The notes beneath the pieces were generated by a model, which saw only the letters and a program-made list of their open reading frames with translations, did not search any database and had not been told where the DNA came from. DNA of 64,000 bases. Origin: Candidatus Latescibacterota bacterium (lineage in GTDB: Bacteria > Latescibacterota > UBA2968). The first letter of the stretch is position 1; each line of letters opens with the position of its first letter. Location of the stretch: assembly GCA_965205975.1 (NCBI GenBank), contig OZ242195.1:2208001-2272000 (forward strand), in the 5' to 3' direction. Of the stretch, positions 34,163 to 44,197 are shown in pieces. The position numbers and the translations under genes were made by a program.

Positions 34163-34183
34163 ACCATTTGTATTCTCAGGTAA

Positions 34184-34365
34184 CGTCATGTGTGACTTCA
34201 AGATCAGTGGCCAATTAGCCCTGTCATTCTGAGCGGAGCGCAGCGGAGTCGAAGAATCTGCTGCCTCAACGGCGTTTATGGGTAACAGATGCTTCGTCAG
34301 CCTATCGGCTTCCTCAGCATGACATGGTGTAGTAGCACATTTACTTTTAAAGTCACACATCGCGT
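34184..34365. mobile_element. MITE-like nested palindromic element with 11-bp flanking direct repeats
   Basis: Terminal IRs ATGTGTGACTT (34188-34198) and AAGTCACACAT (34350-34360); inner TGTCATTCTGAG...CTCAGCATGACA; TTCTCAGGTAA at 34173-34183 and 34366-34376. Confidence 0.6.
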
Positions 34366-34385
34366 TTCTCAGGTAATGAAAAACC

Positions 34386-35900
34386 ATGAAACGAATTTTA
34401 ATATGCTGGATCGGCAACACAGACTTGCTAGCCTCTGAAGGGGAAGATGTAGGTGTGGGACCTATCGCTCAGGCACTGGACAAGCGCGAATTTGACGAGG
34501 TCTTTTTCATCTCAGATTATGAAGATACCCGCGTAAAGCCTTACATCAACTGGATAAAAAAAAGAGTCCCAACACCACACAAACTATTTTATCGACAACT
34601 TTCAAGCCCCACCCACTTTGGAGAAATTTACGAGATTGCCGCAAGCGTCTGTCAGGAAGCCCTAAACCAATATGGTGATCAAACAGAACTGACCTTCCAC
34701 CTCAGCCCCGGCACGCCAGCAATGGCCGCGGTATGGATCATCTTGTCGAAAACGCGCTTTCCCGCTGAATTGATTGAATCCTCAAGAGCGCACGGCGTTC
34801 AAACCACCTCTGTTCCCTTCGATATTTCTGCAGAATTTTTGCCGACCCTCCTGCAAAAGCCCGATGCAGAACTCCGCTCATTAAACGAAGAAAAGCCCAC
34901 AGAATCAGCGAACTTTGGAGACATAATATACAGAAGCCCAGTCATAGCTCGCGTGGTCAAAAAAGCGCGACGTGCTGCCGTGCGAGATATTCCCGTCTTA
35001 TTCGAAGGGGAATCTGGCACGGGAAAAGAACTCTTTGCACGCGCCATTCACCAGAACAGTCCGCGAAAAGAGGGACCATTTATCGCCGTAAATTGCGGTG
35101 CAATTCCCCCCAATCTCGTGGAATCTGAACTGTTTGGGCACAAGGGAGGTGTGTTCACAGGTGCCCCTGATGATCGCAAAGGCCACTTTGAAGAGGCAAA
35201 TAAAGGCACCATCTTTTTGGATGAAATTGGCGAATTGCCCAAAGATATACAGGTAACAATATTGCGCGTCTTACAAGAAGGAGAGGTCGTGCGACTCGGT
35301 GAATCCAAACCCAGAAAAGTAGATGTACGCATTGTTGCGGCGACAAACCGGAATCTCATTGAGGAAGTTGGTGAAGGACGGTTCCGCGAGGACCTGTTCT
35401 ATCGGCTTGTAGTAGCCTATCTCAAATTGCCCCCACTGCGCGAACGCGAGGGAGATATGGGGCTGTTGATTGACCATTCGCTCGAATTGATTAACCAGGA
35501 GAATGAAACGCAACCCGGCTACAAACATAAAAAAATTTCCGCTGGCGCAAGAAATCTTATCTTCAATTACCATTGGCCCGGCAATATACGCGAGTTACAA
35601 AACACGCTCAGACGCGCAATGGTGTGGACAGATGGAGAAACTCTTACACGACAGGACATTGAAGAAGCCCTCTTACCTCCGTTTGGAAAACGAGATGACG
35701 GTATCCTGAATCGCCCTCTGGATGCGAATTTCAGCTTGCCCGATCTGATTGATGAAGTTGCAAAACACTATCTTAATCGCGCTTTACAAGAATCAAAAAC
35801 AAAAAAAGAAGCCGCCGAACTCGTTGGCCTACCCAGTTACCAGACCCTCGCCAACTGGGCAAAAAAATACGGCGTAGCAATTGAAAAAAAAAGAAAATAG
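34386..35900 (+). CDS. sigma-54-dependent activator with RtcR-like (CARF-type) N-terminal domain
   Basis: N-terminal WIG.TDL...GP and FHLSPGTP motifs; GESGTGKE; NCGA; SELFGH.GGVFTGA; FLDEIGE; FREDLFYRL; WPGNIREL; C-terminal HTH. Confidence 0.85.
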   Translation: MKRILICWIGNTDLLASEGEDVGVGPIAQALDKREFDEVFFISDYEDTRVKPYINWIKKRVPTPHKLFYRQLSSPTHFGEIYEIAASVCQEALNQYGDQTELTFHLSPGTPAMAAVWIILSKTRFPAELIESSRAHGVQTTSVPFDISAEFLPTLLQKPDAELRSLNEEKPTESANFGDIIYRSPVIARVVKKARRAAVRDIPVLFEGESGTGKELFARAIHQNSPRKEGPFIAVNCGAIPPNLVESELFGHKGGVFTGAPDDRKGHFEEANKGTIFLDEIGELPKDIQVTILRVLQEGEVVRLGESKPRKVDVRIVAATNRNLIEEVGEGRFREDLFYRLVVAYLKLPPLREREGDMGLLIDHSLELINQENETQPGYKHKKISAGARNLIFNYHWPGNIRELQNTLRRAMVWTDGETLTRQDIEEALLPPFGKRDDGILNRPLDANFSLPDLIDEVAKHYLNRALQESKTKKEAAELVGLPSYQTLANWAKKYGVAIEKKRK

Positions 35901-35936
35901 AAAAATTTTTAAAAAAATATCCAATTTTAGCGTGTA

Positions 35937-35953
35937 TTGGCACGAAATATGCA
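35937..35953 (+). promoter_or_regulatory. sigma-54 (-24/-12) promoter
   Basis: TTGGCACGAAATATGCA: GG at 35939-40, exactly 10 nt, then GC at 35951-52; just downstream of the activator stop. Confidence 0.8.
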
Positions 35954-36042
35954 TGAACAATGGGCGTGACAGCGACGCGGACTCCCGTCACCTGAAAGAA
36001 TTTCTTGACAAAACTGATGTGTTAGCGAAAAAATCAGTATGC

Positions 36043-36141
36043 TGACCCATTCCAAATCGTAGAAAGTTGGATATTCCCAAAATTTGTCAACCTCAAGTGT
36101 TTCAGACAAGCCTGAACGTTTTTTTCACCTTGTGAGAAATT
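36043..36141 (+). repeat. conserved cassette leader, copy 1
   Basis: TGACCCATTCC...TTGGATATTCC...TTTGTCAACCTCAAG...GACAA.CCTGAAC...TTGTGAGAAAT immediately before the ATG. Confidence 0.9.
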
Positions 36142-37860
36142 ATGGCTATTACATCTATCACCATTGAGAACTTCAAGGGCATTGGCGATGCCGTGACCAT
36201 TCCCATTCGCCCCGTCACCTTGTTGTTTGGTAAAAACAACTCGGGCAAGTCAACAGTGTTGCAGGCATTGCGTTATTTACGCAAAATTTACGAATGCGAA
36301 TATCTAAAATTTGAAGAAAAGTTAGAGGCATTACAAGATCAAGAAAGAGGCGAATCAAAATTGGAGGCCCACTACTCTCTACTCACTTTGTTGCAGGAGT
36401 TACCCAATCTTCGTACCCACCTCAGTACTCGTAATTTTCGCGAAATTCAAAAAATTATATCGCAAGAGATATTAAATCTTGATCTATCCAACTTTGACTC
36501 CCTACGCGACAAAGCTCTAAAATCCATGCAAGAAGAATTCTACTCAACATACGTTGAGCTTGCCTCAGAAGACGATTTTCTTAACGAAGATTCCGATTAT
36601 GGGGAATATGGAGAAATCAATCCAGATCACTTTACTGCGTTGGGGAATTTTTCATCCCTTGTGCATCGCCATGAGTTAGATCGGAAAATTCGAATTCGTC
36701 TTGAATTTGACATAAAACCCGAACAATTGACAAGTTCGAATAGTATTTTGCATCGTGCTATAAGGCCGGAGGAAGTGACGAATCCAAAGTCCGCGTGGAT
36801 AGAAATGATAACAGGTTGGGACGAAAAACAAGGGATTATTTATCTCGATTCATACAAGTACGCTTTGAACGGCGTAGAATGGATTTGTCTTACACCAATG
36901 GATAGACCATTACCTGATAAAGACAGATGGAATTATGAAAGGCGGTTTACAGACCTAAACATATATTCAAATCCTAATCATCCGTTCACAGTCACCCAGG
37001 CAATTGAGTTTGGTCTGAGTCAAAGTGAATTTCTGAAAGATTTCTCTTGGCTTCTCGGCACTGATAGTAGTGAGGGTAAAAAATTGGGTTTGAGCGAAAG
37101 TAATAAAAAAAAGATACGATCTTGGTTGGAGGCACATGAGAGCGAAGATATCGTAAAGAATATAGTTGAAGAATTACATCGCATTTTGGGAGAATTATGT
37201 GATATACAACATTTAGGACCTGTGCGAGATATTCCACGTCGGGATTATGCCCCATACTCATATGAAGAATTGCGATGGGCAACAGGACTACAGGCATGGG
37301 ATGTACTGGTAGGAAAACCTCAATTGGTCAAAAAGATAAACCAATATATGAAAAATTTAGCTCTTGGATATAGCTTCAAGCTATCTGAAGACCGCAAACA
37401 GAGGATGCAACTTTATGATGAGACCCATAAAATATACCTTCATCCCTTAGATATCGGTTTTGGTATCTCTCAAGTTATTCCAGTCGTGGTCGGTGCGTTA
37501 GATGACACATCTCAGATTTTCGCGGTTGAACAACCAGAGCTTCACGTTCACCCTGCCGTTCAAGTGGCTTTAGGCGATGTGTTCATTGATGGCATACAAA
37601 ACAGCAATCGCACTATCCTCATTGAAACGCATTCAGAGCACTTGCTACTGAGGATTATGAGGCGGATGCGTGAGACTTTTGAAGATAGGATTGAAGAAAA
37701 TCGTTTCCCTATAACCCCCGATGATATTGCCGTGCTATTCGTCGAATGGCATGATTCGCAAACAATCATACGAGAAATGCCTGTTAATGAACGCGGAGAA
37801 TTGGTAAAAGCCTGGCCGGGCGGTTTCTTTGAAGAAGATATAGAAGAGGTATTTGCTTAA
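36142..37860 (+). CDS. ABC/AAA_21-type ATPase with DUF3696-like C-terminus, copy 1
   Basis: ENFKG, Walker A GKNNSGKS, signature-like DIGFGISQ, Walker B/D-loop AVEQPELHVHP, IETHSEH, WPGGFFEE. Confidence 0.88.
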   Translation: MAITSITIENFKGIGDAVTIPIRPVTLLFGKNNSGKSTVLQALRYLRKIYECEYLKFEEKLEALQDQERGESKLEAHYSLLTLLQELPNLRTHLSTRNFREIQKIISQEILNLDLSNFDSLRDKALKSMQEEFYSTYVELASEDDFLNEDSDYGEYGEINPDHFTALGNFSSLVHRHELDRKIRIRLEFDIKPEQLTSSNSILHRAIRPEEVTNPKSAWIEMITGWDEKQGIIYLDSYKYALNGVEWICLTPMDRPLPDKDRWNYERRFTDLNIYSNPNHPFTVTQAIEFGLSQSEFLKDFSWLLGTDSSEGKKLGLSESNKKKIRSWLEAHESEDIVKNIVEELHRILGELCDIQHLGPVRDIPRRDYAPYSYEELRWATGLQAWDVLVGKPQLVKKINQYMKNLALGYSFKLSEDRKQRMQLYDETHKIYLHPLDIGFGISQVIPVVVGALDDTSQIFAVEQPELHVHPAVQVALGDVFIDGIQNSNRTILIETHSEHLLLRIMRRMRETFEDRIEENRFPITPDDIAVLFVEWHDSQTIIREMPVNERGELVKAWPGGFFEEDIEEVFA

Positions 37861-38813
37861 TGGCTTTATTTTCTGAGTATGCTGTAACACCTGATGTATT
37901 CAATGAGAGTTGTTATGATTCTCCGGCATTGTGTGACGTACATTTTAAACAATTGCTGGAAGTTTTTTTGAGTGAAGGGCTCGTTCGAAATCTTCGCAAT
38001 GGCGAATGGCAAGCGTTCTTTTCAACCCATGCAAGACCCTGGCACGGCCGTACAAAGCATATTTTGAAAAATTTGATAGATGCTGGTCGTTTGGTACCAA
38101 GTGACCCAGCATCAAGTCACACTCCTCAGACTGATCGTGGATGGTGCAACGAGGCGTTAGAGTCACATAAAACCATACCTTTGAATGGCATTATAGTAAG
38201 CGATGACATTCAAAGGACCTATCGCAGAAATCAGTTGGTTGAAAGTGTGAGCAGACTATCGCAATCTACCTGCGCGTGGTGGGAACCCACAAATAGTTCG
38301 CTTCGATTAGAACGTACTATCAGTCAGTATATAGACGCTCTTAAACTGATTCTCAAACACGCTAAATCCATTATGTTTATCGACCCCAATATCGATCCGG
38401 CAAAGAACAACTATGCTGATTTTGTACAATTACTTGAAGCAGCAGGTAATAGACCATCACAATCACCCCAGCCACTCGTTGAGATACACCGCAAAAGTCT
38501 TCGCGGCTCTGGGAAAAATGCTCCTGTATGGGATCAACAAGATATGGAGAATACATTTCGAACCGAATTTGGCCCAGTTCTTTCGCAGTCAAACTTAAAA
38601 GCAGAAGTCTTTATATGGGATGATTTTCATGATCGTTATCTGATCAGCAATTTAGGGGGAATACTGGTCCCCTATGGATTTGACACGTCAAGCAAGCCTG
38701 ATGACTTAACTACCTGGTCACGACTTGGACGATCAGATCGAGATGATGTACAGCGCGAATTTGCTCGCGAGAGTAATAAACACAAACTGCAGTTTAATTT
38801 TACTATACCGTGA
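37860..38813 (+). CDS. ATPase partner with PLD-like motifs (putative nuclease effector), copy 1
   Basis: TAATG coupling; YAVTPD, IMFIDP, FHDRYLISN.GG...GFD. Confidence 0.65.
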   Translation: MALFSEYAVTPDVFNESCYDSPALCDVHFKQLLEVFLSEGLVRNLRNGEWQAFFSTHARPWHGRTKHILKNLIDAGRLVPSDPASSHTPQTDRGWCNEALESHKTIPLNGIIVSDDIQRTYRRNQLVESVSRLSQSTCAWWEPTNSSLRLERTISQYIDALKLILKHAKSIMFIDPNIDPAKNNYADFVQLLEAAGNRPSQSPQPLVEIHRKSLRGSGKNAPVWDQQDMENTFRTEFGPVLSQSNLKAEVFIWDDFHDRYLISNLGGILVPYGFDTSSKPDDLTTWSRLGRSDRDDVQREFARESNKHKLQFNFTIP

Positions 38814-38914
38814 AATAGATACCTGACCGAACAATGGCTTGAAGGCGTCCGGGACCAATTGTATTTTTTATTTCACTACTCCCCGACTTTATAGGGTAAC
38901 ATTGATTGGTTTGT

Positions 38915-39013
38915 TGACCCATTCCTAATCGGAGAGAGTTGGATATTCCAAAAGTTTGTCAACCTCAAGCGTTTCGGACAAACCTGAACATTTTTTTCAG
39001 CTTGTGAGAAATC
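38915..39013 (+). repeat. conserved cassette leader, copy 2
   Basis: 99-nt ungapped homolog of 36043-36141. Confidence 0.9.
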
Positions 39014-40720
39014 ATGGCTATTACATCTATCACCATTGAAAATTTCAAAGGCATCGGCGATAAAGCCGTGACGATTCCCCTTCGCCCCATCACCTTATTA
39101 TTTGGCAAAAACAGCGCGGGCAAGTCAACAGTGTTGCAGGCAATGCGCTATTTACGTGAAATATACGAAAGTCTGAAAATTGAAGAACCATTGCCGGAAA
39201 TGCGTGATCGCGAAAAAAACGAAGATATGGAACTTGAGCCAAGGTTGCGTAAAATTTATAAACTACATGACCGGTTGAAAGCAGCGCACTTTTTATATTT
39301 AGACGACCCATCTAACTATAGTAAAATTTCAAGTTCTGTACAAAAAATTATATCAGAAGATATATCAAATATATCGCAGACTGATCCTCTAGACTTTGAA
39401 TCTCTACGTGGCGAAGCTCTAAAATTCCTACAAACAGTAGAAGATGATATAGATGATTGGGTAGATGATTGGATAGATGATTGGGTAGATAAAAAAGGAG
39501 TAAGTGATCTAGACCACCTTACTAAGTTGGGCGATTTTCATTCTCTGGTACATTGCCAGGATCTGAGTCGGAAAATTCGAATTCGTCTTGAATTTGACAT
39601 AAAATCCGAACAATTGGAAAATTTGAACGATATTTTGAATCTTGCGATGAAATCGATGAAGGGAACAAATCCGGAGTCCGCCTGGATAGAAATGATAACA
39701 GGTTGGGACAAAAAACATCAGAAAGTCTATCTTGATTCATATACGTATGCTTTGAACGGCGAAGAGTGGATTTGTCTCACGATGAACAGATCCAGGCAAG
39801 ATGAAGCGGAATGGAATCATGAAGGGCAGTTTATAAATTTAGACATATATTCAAAGAATTTCGGCTTGAGTGAATGGATGAAAGACCTCTCTTGGCTTCT
39901 CGGCACTAATAATAGTGAGGGTAAAAAATTCGGCCTGAATGAAAGTAAGGTAAAAAATATAAGGCCTTGGTTGAAGCAGTGTGTATTCGAAGATAGATCA
40001 AAGGGTATACTAAAAAATTTGCATAATATTGTACTCGGAGCATTGAAGGACATACGATATTTAGGGCCAGTGCGAGGTGTGCCACGTCGCACTGGCGACT
40101 CATCAGATGGGTCCGAAGATCCAAAGGGATTATGGGCCTGGCGTGATCTTAAACAAGATCCTCAATTGCTGAAAAAGACAAATCACTATATAAAAAAGTT
40201 AGCCCTTGGATACAGCATCAGGCAACCTAAAGATGACGATCATGAGGTTCAACTTTATGATGAAACTCATAAGATATACCTCCATCCCTTAGATGTTGGC
40301 TTTGGCATCTCTCAGGTCATTCCAGTTATGGTCGGTGTGTTAGATGACACGTCTCATATTTTTGCAGTTGAACAGCCAGAGCTTCACGTTCACCCTGCCC
40401 TTCAAGTCGCTTTGGGCGACTTATTCATTGACGGCATAAAAAACAGCAATCGCACCCTGCTTATTGAAACGCATTCTGAGCACTTGATGTTGCGATTGCT
40501 GCGGCGCGTGCGTGAAACAACCCGTCGTAGCAGACGCCGCCAGACCACCGACTTAGAACAGACAGCTCACGAATTGACACCTAATGACCTTTCTGTGGTC
40601 TATGTTCGGCCAACGCCAGCAGGCGTTAAATTCACGCCACTCACTGTAACGAATGACGGTGATTTTGATGCACCATGGCCAGAAGGCTTTTTCGAAGAAC
40701 GTGATTCGGAGTTGTTTTAA
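39014..40720 (+). CDS. ABC/AAA_21-type ATPase with DUF3696-like C-terminus, copy 2
   Basis: GKNSAGKS, DVGFGISQ, EQPELHVHP, ETHSEH, WPEGFFEER; internal 12-bp repeat x3 (39452-39487, DDW[V/I]). Confidence 0.88.
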   Translation: MAITSITIENFKGIGDKAVTIPLRPITLLFGKNSAGKSTVLQAMRYLREIYESLKIEEPLPEMRDREKNEDMELEPRLRKIYKLHDRLKAAHFLYLDDPSNYSKISSSVQKIISEDISNISQTDPLDFESLRGEALKFLQTVEDDIDDWVDDWIDDWVDKKGVSDLDHLTKLGDFHSLVHCQDLSRKIRIRLEFDIKSEQLENLNDILNLAMKSMKGTNPESAWIEMITGWDKKHQKVYLDSYTYALNGEEWICLTMNRSRQDEAEWNHEGQFINLDIYSKNFGLSEWMKDLSWLLGTNNSEGKKFGLNESKVKNIRPWLKQCVFEDRSKGILKNLHNIVLGALKDIRYLGPVRGVPRRTGDSSDGSEDPKGLWAWRDLKQDPQLLKKTNHYIKKLALGYSIRQPKDDDHEVQLYDETHKIYLHPLDVGFGISQVIPVMVGVLDDTSHIFAVEQPELHVHPALQVALGDLFIDGIKNSNRTLLIETHSEHLMLRLLRRVRETTRRSRRRQTTDLEQTAHELTPNDLSVVYVRPTPAGVKFTPLTVTNDGDFDAPWPEGFFEERDSELF

Positions 40721-40722
40721 TT

Positions 40723-41706
40723 ATGCTGAATATTTTTGCTATTGATCCCAAAATATGTCAAAATTTGGAGTGGTTTCGATATTGCACGGAGCACTGTCAG
40801 CCGTCACAAGGACGTGCAATTGCAGATTTACCGTATGACCAATGGTATGAAAATGCGTTTGCGATCATTCAAGACCTTCAACTTCCTCCTATGGAAGAAA
40901 AAAGCCTGAAAAGGCGTCTGGATCTGGTGCGAGCACAACTGGTAAATCGTCCAAGAACTGATTGGACAGATTGGTATTATGATGATTTTTCAAAATTTCC
41001 CTGGATTGCCGAAGTAGAGAAGGAGCATCAGCGAGCGCGTTTTTCTGCCGTTGTCAGCCCTGATTACGAGGGGGCTGATGATACGGAACTCAAGTATCAT
41101 CCTGATGAACTCAATAGAACCGTAGAGGCCTAGAATACTCCCAGTGGCGTTTCAATTACGCGCAGCCCTGGAGACTTCGTAAATGCCATTCTGCCAATGC
41201 TTCGGATTGCTCGGAATATTCACTTTTTGGATCGATATTTTAACGTGGACAGTAACAGTTCATTTACCCAAAATTACACGCAGATGATCCAGGATTTAGC
41301 CTCATATTGTGATTCCTTTCCATCACTGACAATCCATTGCTGCCCAGACGAAAATGATACGCCTGATTCACGTTACTTTGAAAATGAACTGAATAAGCAC
41401 TACGCGTCCTTAATACCAACAGGAAAATCTGTAAAGGTTCTTTTGTGGCAAACAAATCAAGATGCCCAAATAGAAAGAGGTGCTCATCCCTTTCACAATC
41501 GCTATGTGCTATCTAATCATTGCGGTGTCATTGCGGGATATGGTACGGATAGTGCAAAAGCACCGACTGATGCACCAGATGTCCTTCAGATTGTTGACCA
41601 CAAAATATATTTAGAAATGTGGAATCAAATTCGGGATGAAACATTTCCTATGATCCACATTGAGGAGGAAAACAAGTTTGTGATTAACGGTACTAAAAGC
41701 GCGTGA
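40723..41706 (+). pseudogene. ATPase partner, copy 2, interrupted by an in-frame TAG at 41131-41133
   Basis: ORFs 40723-41133 and 41197-41706 share a frame and are separated by one stop; FAIDP, IHFLDRYF, FHNRYVLSN motifs match the other partners. Confidence 0.75.
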
Positions 41707-41770
41707 TTAACAGCGTATAATACGATACCGAAAAATTGAGACCTGTCATAAACGACGGGCTGCAATTGTT

Positions 41771-41845
41771 TTAGATATTCCAAAAATTTGTCAACCCCAA
41801 GCGTTTTAGACAAACCTGAACGCTTTTTTCACCTTGTGAGAAATC
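41771..41845 (+). repeat. conserved cassette leader, copy 3 (shorter)
   Basis: 75-nt homolog of the 3' part of leaders 1 and 2. Confidence 0.9.
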
Positions 41846-43072
41846 ATGGCTATTACATCTATAACTATTGAAAATTTCAAGTGCATCGGCGATGCCGTGA
41901 CCGTTCCCATACGCCCCATCACCTTGTTATTTGGCAAAAACAGTTCGGGCAAGTCAACTGTGTTGCAGGCACTCCTCTATCTACGCAAAATATGCAAAGC
42001 AGAACCAGAACCCTGGGAATTAGGTGGCAGAGGCGAGGGCTATGGCAGTGGTAGTGGCGAGCTTTTTGGCGGAGACTCTGATAGAGTTAGTAGCGATAGC
42101 AATAGAGAAATCGATCCAAACCACTTTAGAGGATCGGACGATTTTCGTTCTCTGGTGCATCGCCAGGAATTAGATCGGAAAATTCGAATTCGTCTTGAGT
42201 TTGGCATAAAATCAGAGGATGTGACGAAGTCGAAATCCGCATGGATAGAAATAATAACAGGATGTGACGGAGAACTACACATCAAACCTGATAAAACTGC
42301 GTTGCAGCAGTGTAGGCGCGAATTGCGAGACCTATTAGAGTTAGGACCAGTGCGAGATGTGCCAAAGCAGGCTCTTGGATCAACGTCTGATTTTGCTAAA
42401 GGTACCTGGACAACAGGGTTAGAGGCCTGGTATATACTTGCACAAGATCCCCAATTGCGAGAAAAGACAAACCACTATATGAAAAAGTTAGCACTTGGAT
42501 ACAGTTTCAGGTGTTCTGAAAACGGTGAACACGAAATTCAACTTTATGATGAAACCCATAAGATAGACGTTCATCCTTTACATGTTGGTTTTGGCATTTC
42601 GCAAGTCATTCCAGTCGTGGTAGGTGCATTAGAAAGTTCCCGTCGGCTTTTCGCAGTTGAACAGCCAGAGCTTCACGTTCACCCTGCCCTTCAAGTCGCT
42701 TTGGGCGACTTATTCATTGATGGAATAAAAAATAGCAATCGCACCATGCTCATTGAAACGCATTCTGAACACTTGTTGTTGCGATTGCTGCGACGTGTAC
42801 GTGAGACTAATGTTCGTAACTCGAAAAAATACGAATGGCGACAAAGTTCAATGTCCCCTCTACACCAAGAGATGTCAGAGGCCGCCATTCGTGACGCAGA
42901 AAATCAAGACTCAAAAGATCACCAATTGACGCCAGACGATCTGTCTGTGGTCTATGTTCGACCAACGCCAGCAGGAGTTAAATTCACTCCACTCGCTGTA
43001 ACGAATGACGGCGATTTTAATGCACCATGGCCAGAAGGCTTCTTCGACGAGCGAGTGGAGGAACTTTTATGA
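41846..43072 (+). CDS. ABC/AAA_21-type ATPase with DUF3696-like C-terminus, copy 3 (internally shortened)
   Basis: GKNSSGKS, HVGFGISQ, EQPELHVHP, ETHSEH, WPEGFFDER; 408 aa versus about 570 aa for copies 1 and 2. Confidence 0.85.
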   Translation: MAITSITIENFKCIGDAVTVPIRPITLLFGKNSSGKSTVLQALLYLRKICKAEPEPWELGGRGEGYGSGSGELFGGDSDRVSSDSNREIDPNHFRGSDDFRSLVHRQELDRKIRIRLEFGIKSEDVTKSKSAWIEIITGCDGELHIKPDKTALQQCRRELRDLLELGPVRDVPKQALGSTSDFAKGTWTTGLEAWYILAQDPQLREKTNHYMKKLALGYSFRCSENGEHEIQLYDETHKIDVHPLHVGFGISQVIPVVVGALESSRRLFAVEQPELHVHPALQVALGDLFIDGIKNSNRTMLIETHSEHLLLRLLRRVRETNVRNSKKYEWRQSSMSPLHQEMSEAAIRDAENQDSKDHQLTPDDLSVVYVRPTPAGVKFTPLAVTNDGDFNAPWPEGFFDERVEELL

Positions 43073-44001
43073 CAAAAGAACAGCGCGATAATAAAAAGCT
43101 GATTCATGATTATGCGTTAGAACCCGAACTGATCGCAAATTGCGATCAATTCTTATTTCGATACCTTACCCAATACAAAAAATTTGGCTGGGACACAGGC
43201 TGCATCGTAGTTCAATACCCCAATCACTGGCGAGAACTGGTTGAGAGACTATTCAATGATAACAAACGGTCCGAACTATTGCTGACGCGTTTGCTTAGAA
43301 CAAAGGCCGTACGCCATGACTCCACGTGGAACGATTTATTCCCTTGGATTGAAAACGCTGCAAACGAAAAAAGTCCCCATCCGTTTCATGTGATCTTGGC
43401 CCACAATAATCCTAACCCACAGAAATGGTCCAACATCGTATGCGCGGAAGATATTTCTCTCGGAGATGATAGAGCTTGGGACGATCCTCCTTCTTCAGCC
43501 ACAGTAAATCGGACTGCTACTTCAATGGCAGCTTGCATTGAGCCTCTGCTAAGATATGCAACGCAAATTCATTTCATTGATCCACATTTTTGCCCGTTGC
43601 AAGATAGATTCAAGAATCCTTTAAGTAAATTCCTAAAAATCATTTGTCACGATAGCCATGAGGTCTCACTCGAATATCACACCTTAGCTGACAACACATT
43701 GTGCTGGAAAGATTTTCAACAGAAATGCGAAGATGAGCTTCCTCATCTAATTCCTAAAGGTTTTACGCTCACTGTCCGCCGTTGGAAAAACAGGGTCGGA
43801 GGTGAGCGTTTTCATAATCGCTATATCCTCACTAACATCGGTGGTGTAGCTTTCGGTAATAGTATCGCCGAAGCTCCGAAAGGAGAGGATAATATCTCCC
43901 GCTTGAGTGAAATTGATTCTCAAAGATGGCTCAATAAGTACTCTGGTGACTCACCTGCATTTGATCTGGAGGGAGAAGTAAATATAAAAAGCACACTATG
44001 A
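43069..44001 (+). CDS. ATPase partner with PLD-like motifs (putative nuclease effector), copy 3
   Basis: ATGA coupling; YALEPE, IHFIDPHF, FHNRYILTN.GG..FG. Confidence 0.65.
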   Translation: MTKEQRDNKKLIHDYALEPELIANCDQFLFRYLTQYKKFGWDTGCIVVQYPNHWRELVERLFNDNKRSELLLTRLLRTKAVRHDSTWNDLFPWIENAANEKSPHPFHVILAHNNPNPQKWSNIVCAEDISLGDDRAWDDPPSSATVNRTATSMAACIEPLLRYATQIHFIDPHFCPLQDRFKNPLSKFLKIICHDSHEVSLEYHTLADNTLCWKDFQQKCEDELPHLIPKGFTLTVRRWKNRVGGERFHNRYILTNIGGVAFGNSIAEAPKGEDNISRLSEIDSQRWLNKYSGDSPAFDLEGEVNIKSTL

Positions 44002-44122
44002 AGAATCAGATAATTGGTGGAAAATAAGACAGAAGAGTGACTTGTCACAAACAACGGGTTGCAAGTATTCGAGGCAAGTCTCTTTTTTTATTAGTGGGAG
44101 GAATGGGCGGACTAACAACTAC

Positions 44123-44149
44123 GGGCGGGCACAGGAGCACCGCCCCTAC
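44123..44149 (-). repeat. GTAG-type REP-like element
   Basis: Reverse complement GTAGGGGCGGTGCTCCTGTGCCCGCCC. Confidence 0.6.
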
Positions 44150-44197
44150 AGCCTTGGAATGGCTGGATGGACTAATAACTGACTGCTGATCACTACT

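Follow-up and report, generated by a model that had tools for sequence, protein, structure and literature searches.

A PspF2-type CARF activator at the head of an array of Menshen-like ATPase/PLD gene pairs with mosaic ATPases in a Latescibacterota genome

The 64,000-nucleotide (nt) stretch analyzed here, referred to as the window (assembly GCA_965205975.1, contig OZ242195.1, positions 2,208,001 to 2,272,000 of the forward strand), comes from a Candidatus Latescibacterota bacterium and carries a candidate anti-phage array, which an earlier note had proposed from the letters alone. The array occupies an accessory island (34165..44197) between a gene of the geranylgeranyl reductase family and glyA, with no integrase gene inside. 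It consists of an activator gene, a putative sigma-54 promoter and three co-oriented cassettes, each with a 75-nt leader, an ATPase gene (A1 to A3) and a partner gene (B1 to B3); all open reading frames lie where the note had placed them. The block is AT-rich, as also noted before: its G+C content is 42.2% against 50.9% for the whole genome, and only 4 of 686 genomic tiles of 8.1 kb are equally low. The empty site (joint 34164->44198) is present in contigs of runs X1 and X2; contigs came from three runs of a single study, which may be the source; run X5 contains nothing but small pieces. The closest named records are Latescibacterota metagenome-assembled genomes with identical gene order. Within the genus the activator is carried by 11 of 21 genomes, and the arrays hold one to three cassettes in the fixed order B1, B2, B3.

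The activator (34386..35900, + strand, 504 amino acids [aa]) has the CARF-AAA+-helix-turn-helix architecture that had been called RtcR-like; the architecture stands, the RtcR identity does not. The protein matches PADLOC model PDLC01995 (E 2.9e-196 over aa 2-497), and its best full-length match is PADLOC RtcR_PspF2, with 651 bits versus 227 for PspF1 and 192 for RtcR. The RtcR equivalog model gives 324.6 bits, below its cut-off of 650. The activator is of the PspF2 type, so that the RtcR ligand can no longer be taken as given. Its modeled N-terminal domain (pLDDT 86) has Csm6 as best fold match (Z 17.9, root-mean-square deviation 2.8, 145 aligned), and the first 22 rows of the comparison are all CARF or Csx1-type proteins, which agrees with the CARF assignment made earlier. 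PDB sequence searches with the CARF domain and with the partner gave nothing useful. The Walker motifs are intact, and the sigma-54 contact loop, GVFTGA, keeps F-T-G-A. The genome encodes rpoN; it also encodes about 20 other sigma-54 activators. The absence of rtcA and rtcB from the window extends to the whole genome, which is 98% complete. A second, divergent PspF2 subgroup (L094, L099, L143, L169, L173) also heads B1-type pairs; its CARF domain is closer to the CARF1/Csm6 models and may have a different ligand.

The genome possesses a type III Cas10 with GGDD, in a Cmr-like CRISPR locus that also contains probable CARF effectors (G000:C1:3479899-3492494). Strict dependence of the array on type III CRISPR is not supported, Cas10 being found in 7/11 activator-positive and 4/10 activator-negative genomes of the genus.

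Behind the activator lies the putative sigma-54 −24/−12 box TGGCACGAAATATGCA (35938..35953, + strand), which agrees with the consensus at 11 of 12 positions; across the genome, boxes of that score occur at a background of 0.0034 per 250 nt of strand. Boxes scoring at least 11/12 are found 3′ of 24/37 co-oriented activator ends, versus 2/459 control genes and 1/79 partner genes. They also accompany eight of ten opposite-strand activators, both misses being non-CARF activators, and 16/21 in a second set, which includes near-duplicates. Judged from this recurrence the box is a family trait of the activators, and the promoter postulated at this position is conserved across relatives. Later cassettes have a box of their own in five of nine relatives examined (six extra boxes); in the window only that of the first cassette survives, with none before leader copy 2. 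The internal boxes of relatives (L083:6510-6720; similar in L085, L086, L088 and L089) share a non-coding stretch of ~170 nt on their 5′ side, which resembles a collapsed remnant of the activator 3′ half and keeps a AAAAAATTT(A/C)C block, a candidate enhancer site, about 165 nt upstream. Another motif, CCAG-N11-CTGG in the activator 3′ end, recurs in 10/23 co-oriented loci; it was rejected as an enhancer site, as it encodes Y-Q-x-x-x-N-W and is missing from divergent loci and internal promoters.

The leaders (copy 1, 36067..36141; copy 2, 38939..39013; copy 3, 41771..41845; all + strand) lie 5′ of A1, A2, and A3, are 88-90% identical and occur in the genome only at these three places. A structured RNA was considered and rejected, there being no Rfam match, a folding z of −0.68, compensatory change in 0/17 pairs, and no covariation among 17 leader copies; the leader is read as a homology block instead.

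A1 (36142..37860, + strand, 572 aa) is an NsnB-like, OLD-type ABC ATPase with a B1-type DUF3696 tail; A2 (39014..40720, + strand, 568 aa) has an A3-type tail, and A3 (41846..43072, + strand, 408 aa) has a short insert. The best scores for the ATPases come from the PDC-M55A, NsnB and HEC-03B models, with E values of 1e-40 to 1e-43 for NsnB. They exhibit a Walker A motif, a GFG signature, an EQPE Walker B and an ETHSE H-loop. The DUF3696 profile, with a cut-off of 22 bits, matches weakly, scoring 22.5, 17.8, and 19 bits.

Partner B1 (37860..38813, + strand) is NsnC-like, with a putatively inactive PIN domain and a PLD domain (FIDP, HDRY), and belongs to a widespread subfamily with 662 homologues. 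Partner B3 (43069..44001, + strand) likewise combines a presumed inactive PIN (aa ~10-135) with a MIT_C/Nuc-type PLD (aa ~140-305). Partner B2 (40723..41706, + strand) is a pseudogene with an in-frame TAG at 41131-41133. Contigs of the three runs show no difference there, the position is Trp in 9/9 relatives aligned, where the gene is intact, and the nonsense codon is real. The three leader/ATPase/partner cassettes of the earlier note thus hold for the leaders, the weak DUF3696-like tails and the F(I/L)D and H(D/N)RY motifs, found in all three partners, but not for an intact second partner. Nor is the array "triplicated": the partners are mutually only 20-28% identical in local alignments, too distant for recent duplicates, and for both B1 and B3 closer relatives are known from other phyla. 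The array was collected rather than simply triplicated.

Profile scans gave no family match for any partner alone. In the model of B3 (pLDDT 93.6) the C-terminal domain matches MITD1 (2ymb, Z 10.7) and NucT (Z 9.9), and the N-terminal region (aa 1-141) about 20 PIN rows at Z 6-7.9. The homology of the B1 and B3 families extends over their full length (profile match probability 99.6), and their alignments share no conserved acidic column in the PIN domain. MIT_C/BrxL look-alikes occur in the B1 family; the NsnC and BrxL models matched weakly, NsnC in 17/94 and 30/97 partner rows. HxR is kept in 89/94 and 86/97 partners, with FIDP and H[DN]R conserved, and this together with the fold match agrees with the PLD-like nature first proposed. 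The related HRD domain of BrxL is taken as a probable DNase in the account given in PMC12839542.

The most interesting feature of the locus, in our opinion, is the exchangeable body of its ATPases, the putative sensor. Trees of the ATPases were calculated with FastTree from 94 rows, 13 of 107 having been dropped for lack of a motif. In the tail tree all 35 B1-linked tails, including that of A1, fall into one clade with support 100 and a single label change. The core tree demands 16 changes for the B1 label, of which strong branches force four, and places the three cores of the window with those of the genus. The motif RE[ML]xxNxxG[ED]L is found in 51/58 B1-linked tails versus 0/76 others. On these comparisons the ATPases are mosaics, in which the last ~50 residues, unlike the core, go with the type of partner.

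Comparison with slot 1 of eight relatives locates the variation. The first 44 residues of the ATPase are 84-95% identical and the last bin 82-100%, whereas identity over residues 45-352 lies anywhere between 2 and 91% and the length varies from 430 to 701 aa; in the same comparison the activator bins are 57-100% and the B1 bins 80-100% identical. ATPase bodies are often best matched in another slot, as with both slots within G022 and within G024. Crossovers recurring between the H-loop and the tail suggest selection that keeps tail and partner together. A divergent patch in the A1 body (36731-36838) accounts for about 40% of depth in three runs and may belong to a co-occurring strain. Elsewhere in the genome, four further AAA_21-type ATPases lie near 1.547, 2.520, 3.355, and 5.459 Mb with no partner recognized.

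The earlier note had not recognized the architecture as a named system, yet its cassettes are recognizably NsnB and NsnC of the Menshen system (Li et al. 2025, PMC12065111). As described there, NsnB shares with the present ATPases an ABC fold with a GxG signature (GFG here), an altered Walker B and a DUF3696 tail; NsnC is, by its description, an inactive PIN joined to a PB-PLD1 domain (MIT_C-like, with an acid after β2 and an HDR motif), and Menshen too is frequently tied to type I restriction-modification (RM). The differences are equally clear. NsnA, a ParB-DUF262 plus ParBDB protein encoded directly upstream of the ATPase in Menshen, is missing from the array, as the lack of DUF262 at the locus had already indicated; the two DUF262 genes of the genome are distant and GmrSD-sized. 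The ATPases here measure 408-701 aa with large variable inserts, against 345 positions in the NsnB model; their Walker B is EQ where PMC12065111 gives EN; and the genes are arrayed, with a CARF activator and a sigma-54 box at the head. By analogy the array would work like Menshen and PARIS, but without NsnA it is not a Menshen system. The Menshen survey was, by its account, seeded on DUF262, which places NsnA-less pairs outside its reach (PMC12065111).

Other systems resemble the array in part. RtcR-like activators tied to RM are noted in PMC4012209, and defense superoperons under such activators, with the idea of feedback, in PMC11090510; there as here a CARF-AAA-HTH protein heads co-oriented defense genes with an RM link and proposed sensing of an infection ligand, but the cargo described there is RM and CoCoNuTs, and neither the present pair nor evidence on its promoter was seen in the passages covered. 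With the rtcBA system as set out in PMC7790460 the array shares domain order and, presumably, sigma-54 activation, but not the score of its regulator (325 against 650 bits) or the rtcA and rtcB genes. PARIS, as presented in PMC11464382, likewise pairs an ABC ATPase sensor (AriA) with a separate nuclease (AriB) that dimerizes on release. AriB is a TOPRIM protein, the partner here PIN plus PLD, and the AriA models match motif regions only. The two-gene ATPase pairs HEC-03 and PDC-M55 of PADLOC top the ATPase scores beside NsnB; HEC-03 protects and has a PIN partner, but the HEC-03 and PDC-M55B partner models found no match in the partners of the window or in 191 aligned rows. Run against genomes, the PDC-M55B model gave no hit anywhere, the controls included. 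In PrrC and RloC an ABC ATPase effector carries a fused HEPN domain in a single protein. They are like the present pair in that many of its relatives are tied to type I RM; they differ in that the pair has a separate PIN-PLD gene and a DUF3696-like ATPase tail, and the array no hsd genes. The regulator logic and both domains are thus already in print; their combination, an NsnA-less NsnB/NsnC pair under a CARF activator, was not found in the literature searched, from which subscription papers were mostly absent.

The pair is widespread. At 50% clustering, 3,040 representatives match the partner profile. The locus records belong to Desulfobacterota-type deltaproteobacteria, Myxococcota, Acidobacteriota, Binatia and others. 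Loci were kept for B3-type partners from genomes (80/88) and for B1-type partners from metagenomes (80/205), and an ATPase lies directly upstream of the partner in 76/80 and 66/80, respectively; 13 of the remaining metagenome loci have <300 nt upstream. Among loci with at least 9.5 kb of upstream sequence (52 genomic and 24 metagenomic), the activator is present in 34 and 13, and either the activator or type I hsd genes in 47 and 23. Other neighbors include OLD, GmrSD, Mrr, SIR2, AbiTii and Schlafen. Both the defense context and the co-occurrence of activator and cassettes elsewhere, the latter fixed beforehand as a test, were accordingly seen, the co-occurrence across several phyla. In several Binatia (L007, L011, L014, L046, L047, L049, L053) the activator is divergent from the pair, like rtcR from rtcBA, and the box is kept. 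The own phylum has the activator in 33/168 genomes, with the pair nearby at 21/33 activator loci. When one other class was surveyed in reverse, the seed genome alone was recovered (1/95), and there are almost no partners on viral contigs (0 and 1 locus) or on plasmids. No NsnA-like gene was seen among 76 + 31 neighbors scanned apart from GmrSD, the first set comprising one representative per cluster; the absence was checked in 160 loci, not in all 3,040 representatives.

From gene content and precedent we consider it rather probable that the array is induced by stress and that its modules form a bank of second-line anti-phage defenses whose sensors can be exchanged. The CARF domain, whose anatomy is evident from the fold, would bind a nucleotide or an RNA end arising from infection, and the activator would oligomerize and open the sigma-54 promoter that follows its stop codon. 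ATPase and partner would then be co-produced, the DUF3696 tail holding the inactive PIN of the partner, as is predicted for Menshen (PMC12065111); the covariation of tail and partner type bears on such binding indirectly and is confounded by linkage. With no NsnA, the variable insert of the ATPase may serve as the sensor, on the analogy of PARIS and PrrC, its trigger probably being a phage protein or a disabled restriction enzyme. Sensing by the insert has been argued for ABC defense ATPases (10.1101/2024.01.29.577857). On release or rearrangement, two PLD domains with a single HxR each would form a nuclease site and damage phage or host nucleic acid. A PLD active site is built from two HxR halves. 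The pattern of diversity would follow if sensor bodies were exchanged by recombination at conserved anchors (the leader with the P-loop start on one side, the signature to H-loop core on the other) while tail and partner stayed together, so that one genome would hold several sensor/effector combinations.

The earlier note had also envisaged feedback, with the effectors generating the CARF ligand. PLD enzymes leave 3′-OH or 3′-phosphate ends. The CARF domain of RtcR, according to PMC7790460, requires a 2′,3′-cyclic phosphate, binding such ends at about 200 nM, 3′-OH ends at >5 µM and 3′-phosphate ends not at all, and there is no RtcA for cyclizing; feedback is therefore unlikely, and the idea itself is already published.

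Several observations weigh against an inducible bank of this kind. The contact loop is GVFTGA in the window and one relative, GAFSNA in four and GTFANA in two; GAFTGA is kept in 37/57 activators but is degenerate in this clade, and sigma-54 activation may be weak or lost through it. The activator is not dedicated to the pair, which is missing from the stretch fetched at 12/33 activator loci of the phylum (two at a contig edge, four with RM only, six with neither box nor pair). Neither candidate ligand is consistently sourced, as 4/11 genomes of the genus with the activator lack Cas10 and the present genome lacks rtcA. ATP hydrolysis may be slow given EQPE, the Walker B sequence in 125/127 ATPases. 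The covariation of tail and partner could stem from physical linkage rather than binding, and the PIN Z-scores lie below 8, the caution line of the tool. Broken copies in the genus comprise 4/24 partners versus 0/24 ATPases, as would be expected of a costly effector, but the excess is not significant (p = 0.11). The locus sets contain kin and near-duplicates and overlap, and the counts are thus not independent. Six genomes of one family (L180, L186, L187, L189, L191, L192) have an intact PspF2 activator with neither a sigma-54 box nor defense cargo behind it.

The alternative that survives best, though we think it unlikely, is a PrrC-style guard, in which the ATPase monitors the HsdRMS complex and the array is a remnant guarding restriction enzymes encoded elsewhere in the genome. 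PrrC, tied to type I RM, provides the precedent (10.1101/2024.01.29.577857). The hsd genes lie upstream at 25/52 and 21/24 of the long-flank loci, commonly in the order activator, hsdR, hsdM, hsdS, ATPase, partner, with hsdS often abutting the ATPase, and in the genome itself the HsdS domain gives 18 matches, spread over about 10 loci. All 11 arrays of the genus and the Binatia loci, however, lack hsd genes while their pairs remain intact, and the ATPase bodies vary more than a single conserved HsdR/M target would suggest.

It is quite improbable that the island is merely decaying. On that reading the activator of this lineage would no longer contact sigma-54, and drift together with passive recombination between repeats would have produced the ATPase mosaics and the broken partners. 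The degenerate loops and the B2 nonsense codon would fit, as would frameshifts and insertion sequences in the partners and activators of relatives and the empty site within the same samples. Yet the activators are intact and 86-91% identical, boxes are retained before several cassettes, all 24 ATPases of the genus keep their motifs, and B1 is 89-92% identical. GAFS-type loops, moreover, are counted as functional in PMC4641369. Loops that have lost Thr are probably not. The loop (35148-35165) varies in activators otherwise this similar, which could reflect decay or escape from an inhibitor.

Slightly less credible again is a role in signal handling or repair, in which the PLD domain of the partner strips off cyclic or 3′ phosphates or breaks down the CARF ligand, so that its effect is negative feedback instead of toxicity. 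The PLD superfamily includes Tdp1-like end-processing enzymes, which are among the fold-match rows, and the regulator is akin to that of the RNA repair operon, with rtcA/rtcB missing; the restriction and abortive-infection neighbors, the hypervariable ATPase bodies and the loss of partners while ATPases stay intact speak against it. Menshen completed in trans by a DUF262 protein merits hardly any credence: both components match NsnB and NsnC and two DUF262 genes exist, but these are far away and GmrSD-sized (599-647 aa), the NsnA model reaches only E 2e-4, and the 107 neighbors scanned contain no NsnA-like gene, only GmrSD.

Returning to the induced bank of modules, a bolder version can be offered tentatively. 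Immunity would pass two gates, a CARF signal licensing transcription and each ATPase then checking its own phage trigger; the ATPase cassette would have three parts (fixed start, exchangeable body, effector-matched tail) reshuffled within the array and across phyla; and Menshen would represent one instance of a broader NsnBC module, which takes its input from a DUF262 protein or from a sigma-54 CARF switch. The 3,040 profile matches, with NsnA checked in 160 loci, suggest that the Menshen ATPase/effector pair is widespread without its supposed sensor. With a single activator, a single box and few genes in the operon, the locus offers a compact test bed for the ligand of non-Rtc CARF sigma-54 activators, and its natural chimeras mark the junctions for studying specificity change in ABC-ATPase defense sensors: exchanging bodies should shift the trigger, and exchanging tails the effector. 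The locus also bears on whether MIT_C-type HxR domains are enzymes.

The remaining features of the island are minor. A repeat resembling a miniature inverted-repeat transposable element (34183..34366) shows inverted repeats at its ends and a short target duplication; elsewhere in the genome lie at least three nearly complete copies (96%) and many partial ones resembling repetitive extragenic palindromic (REP) elements, and the form without it is present in run X1. It is polymorphic, a passenger outside the system. Scans for sigma-70 promoters and terminators performed no better than chance. A terminator-like hairpin with a U-run (44031..44090, + strand; folding z only −1.35) recurs 3′ of the last partner in relatives, and its 5′ half is also found 3′ of B2 (about 41736-41765). 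At the right edge of the island (44117-44150) lies a REP-type palindrome that recurs many times across the genome.

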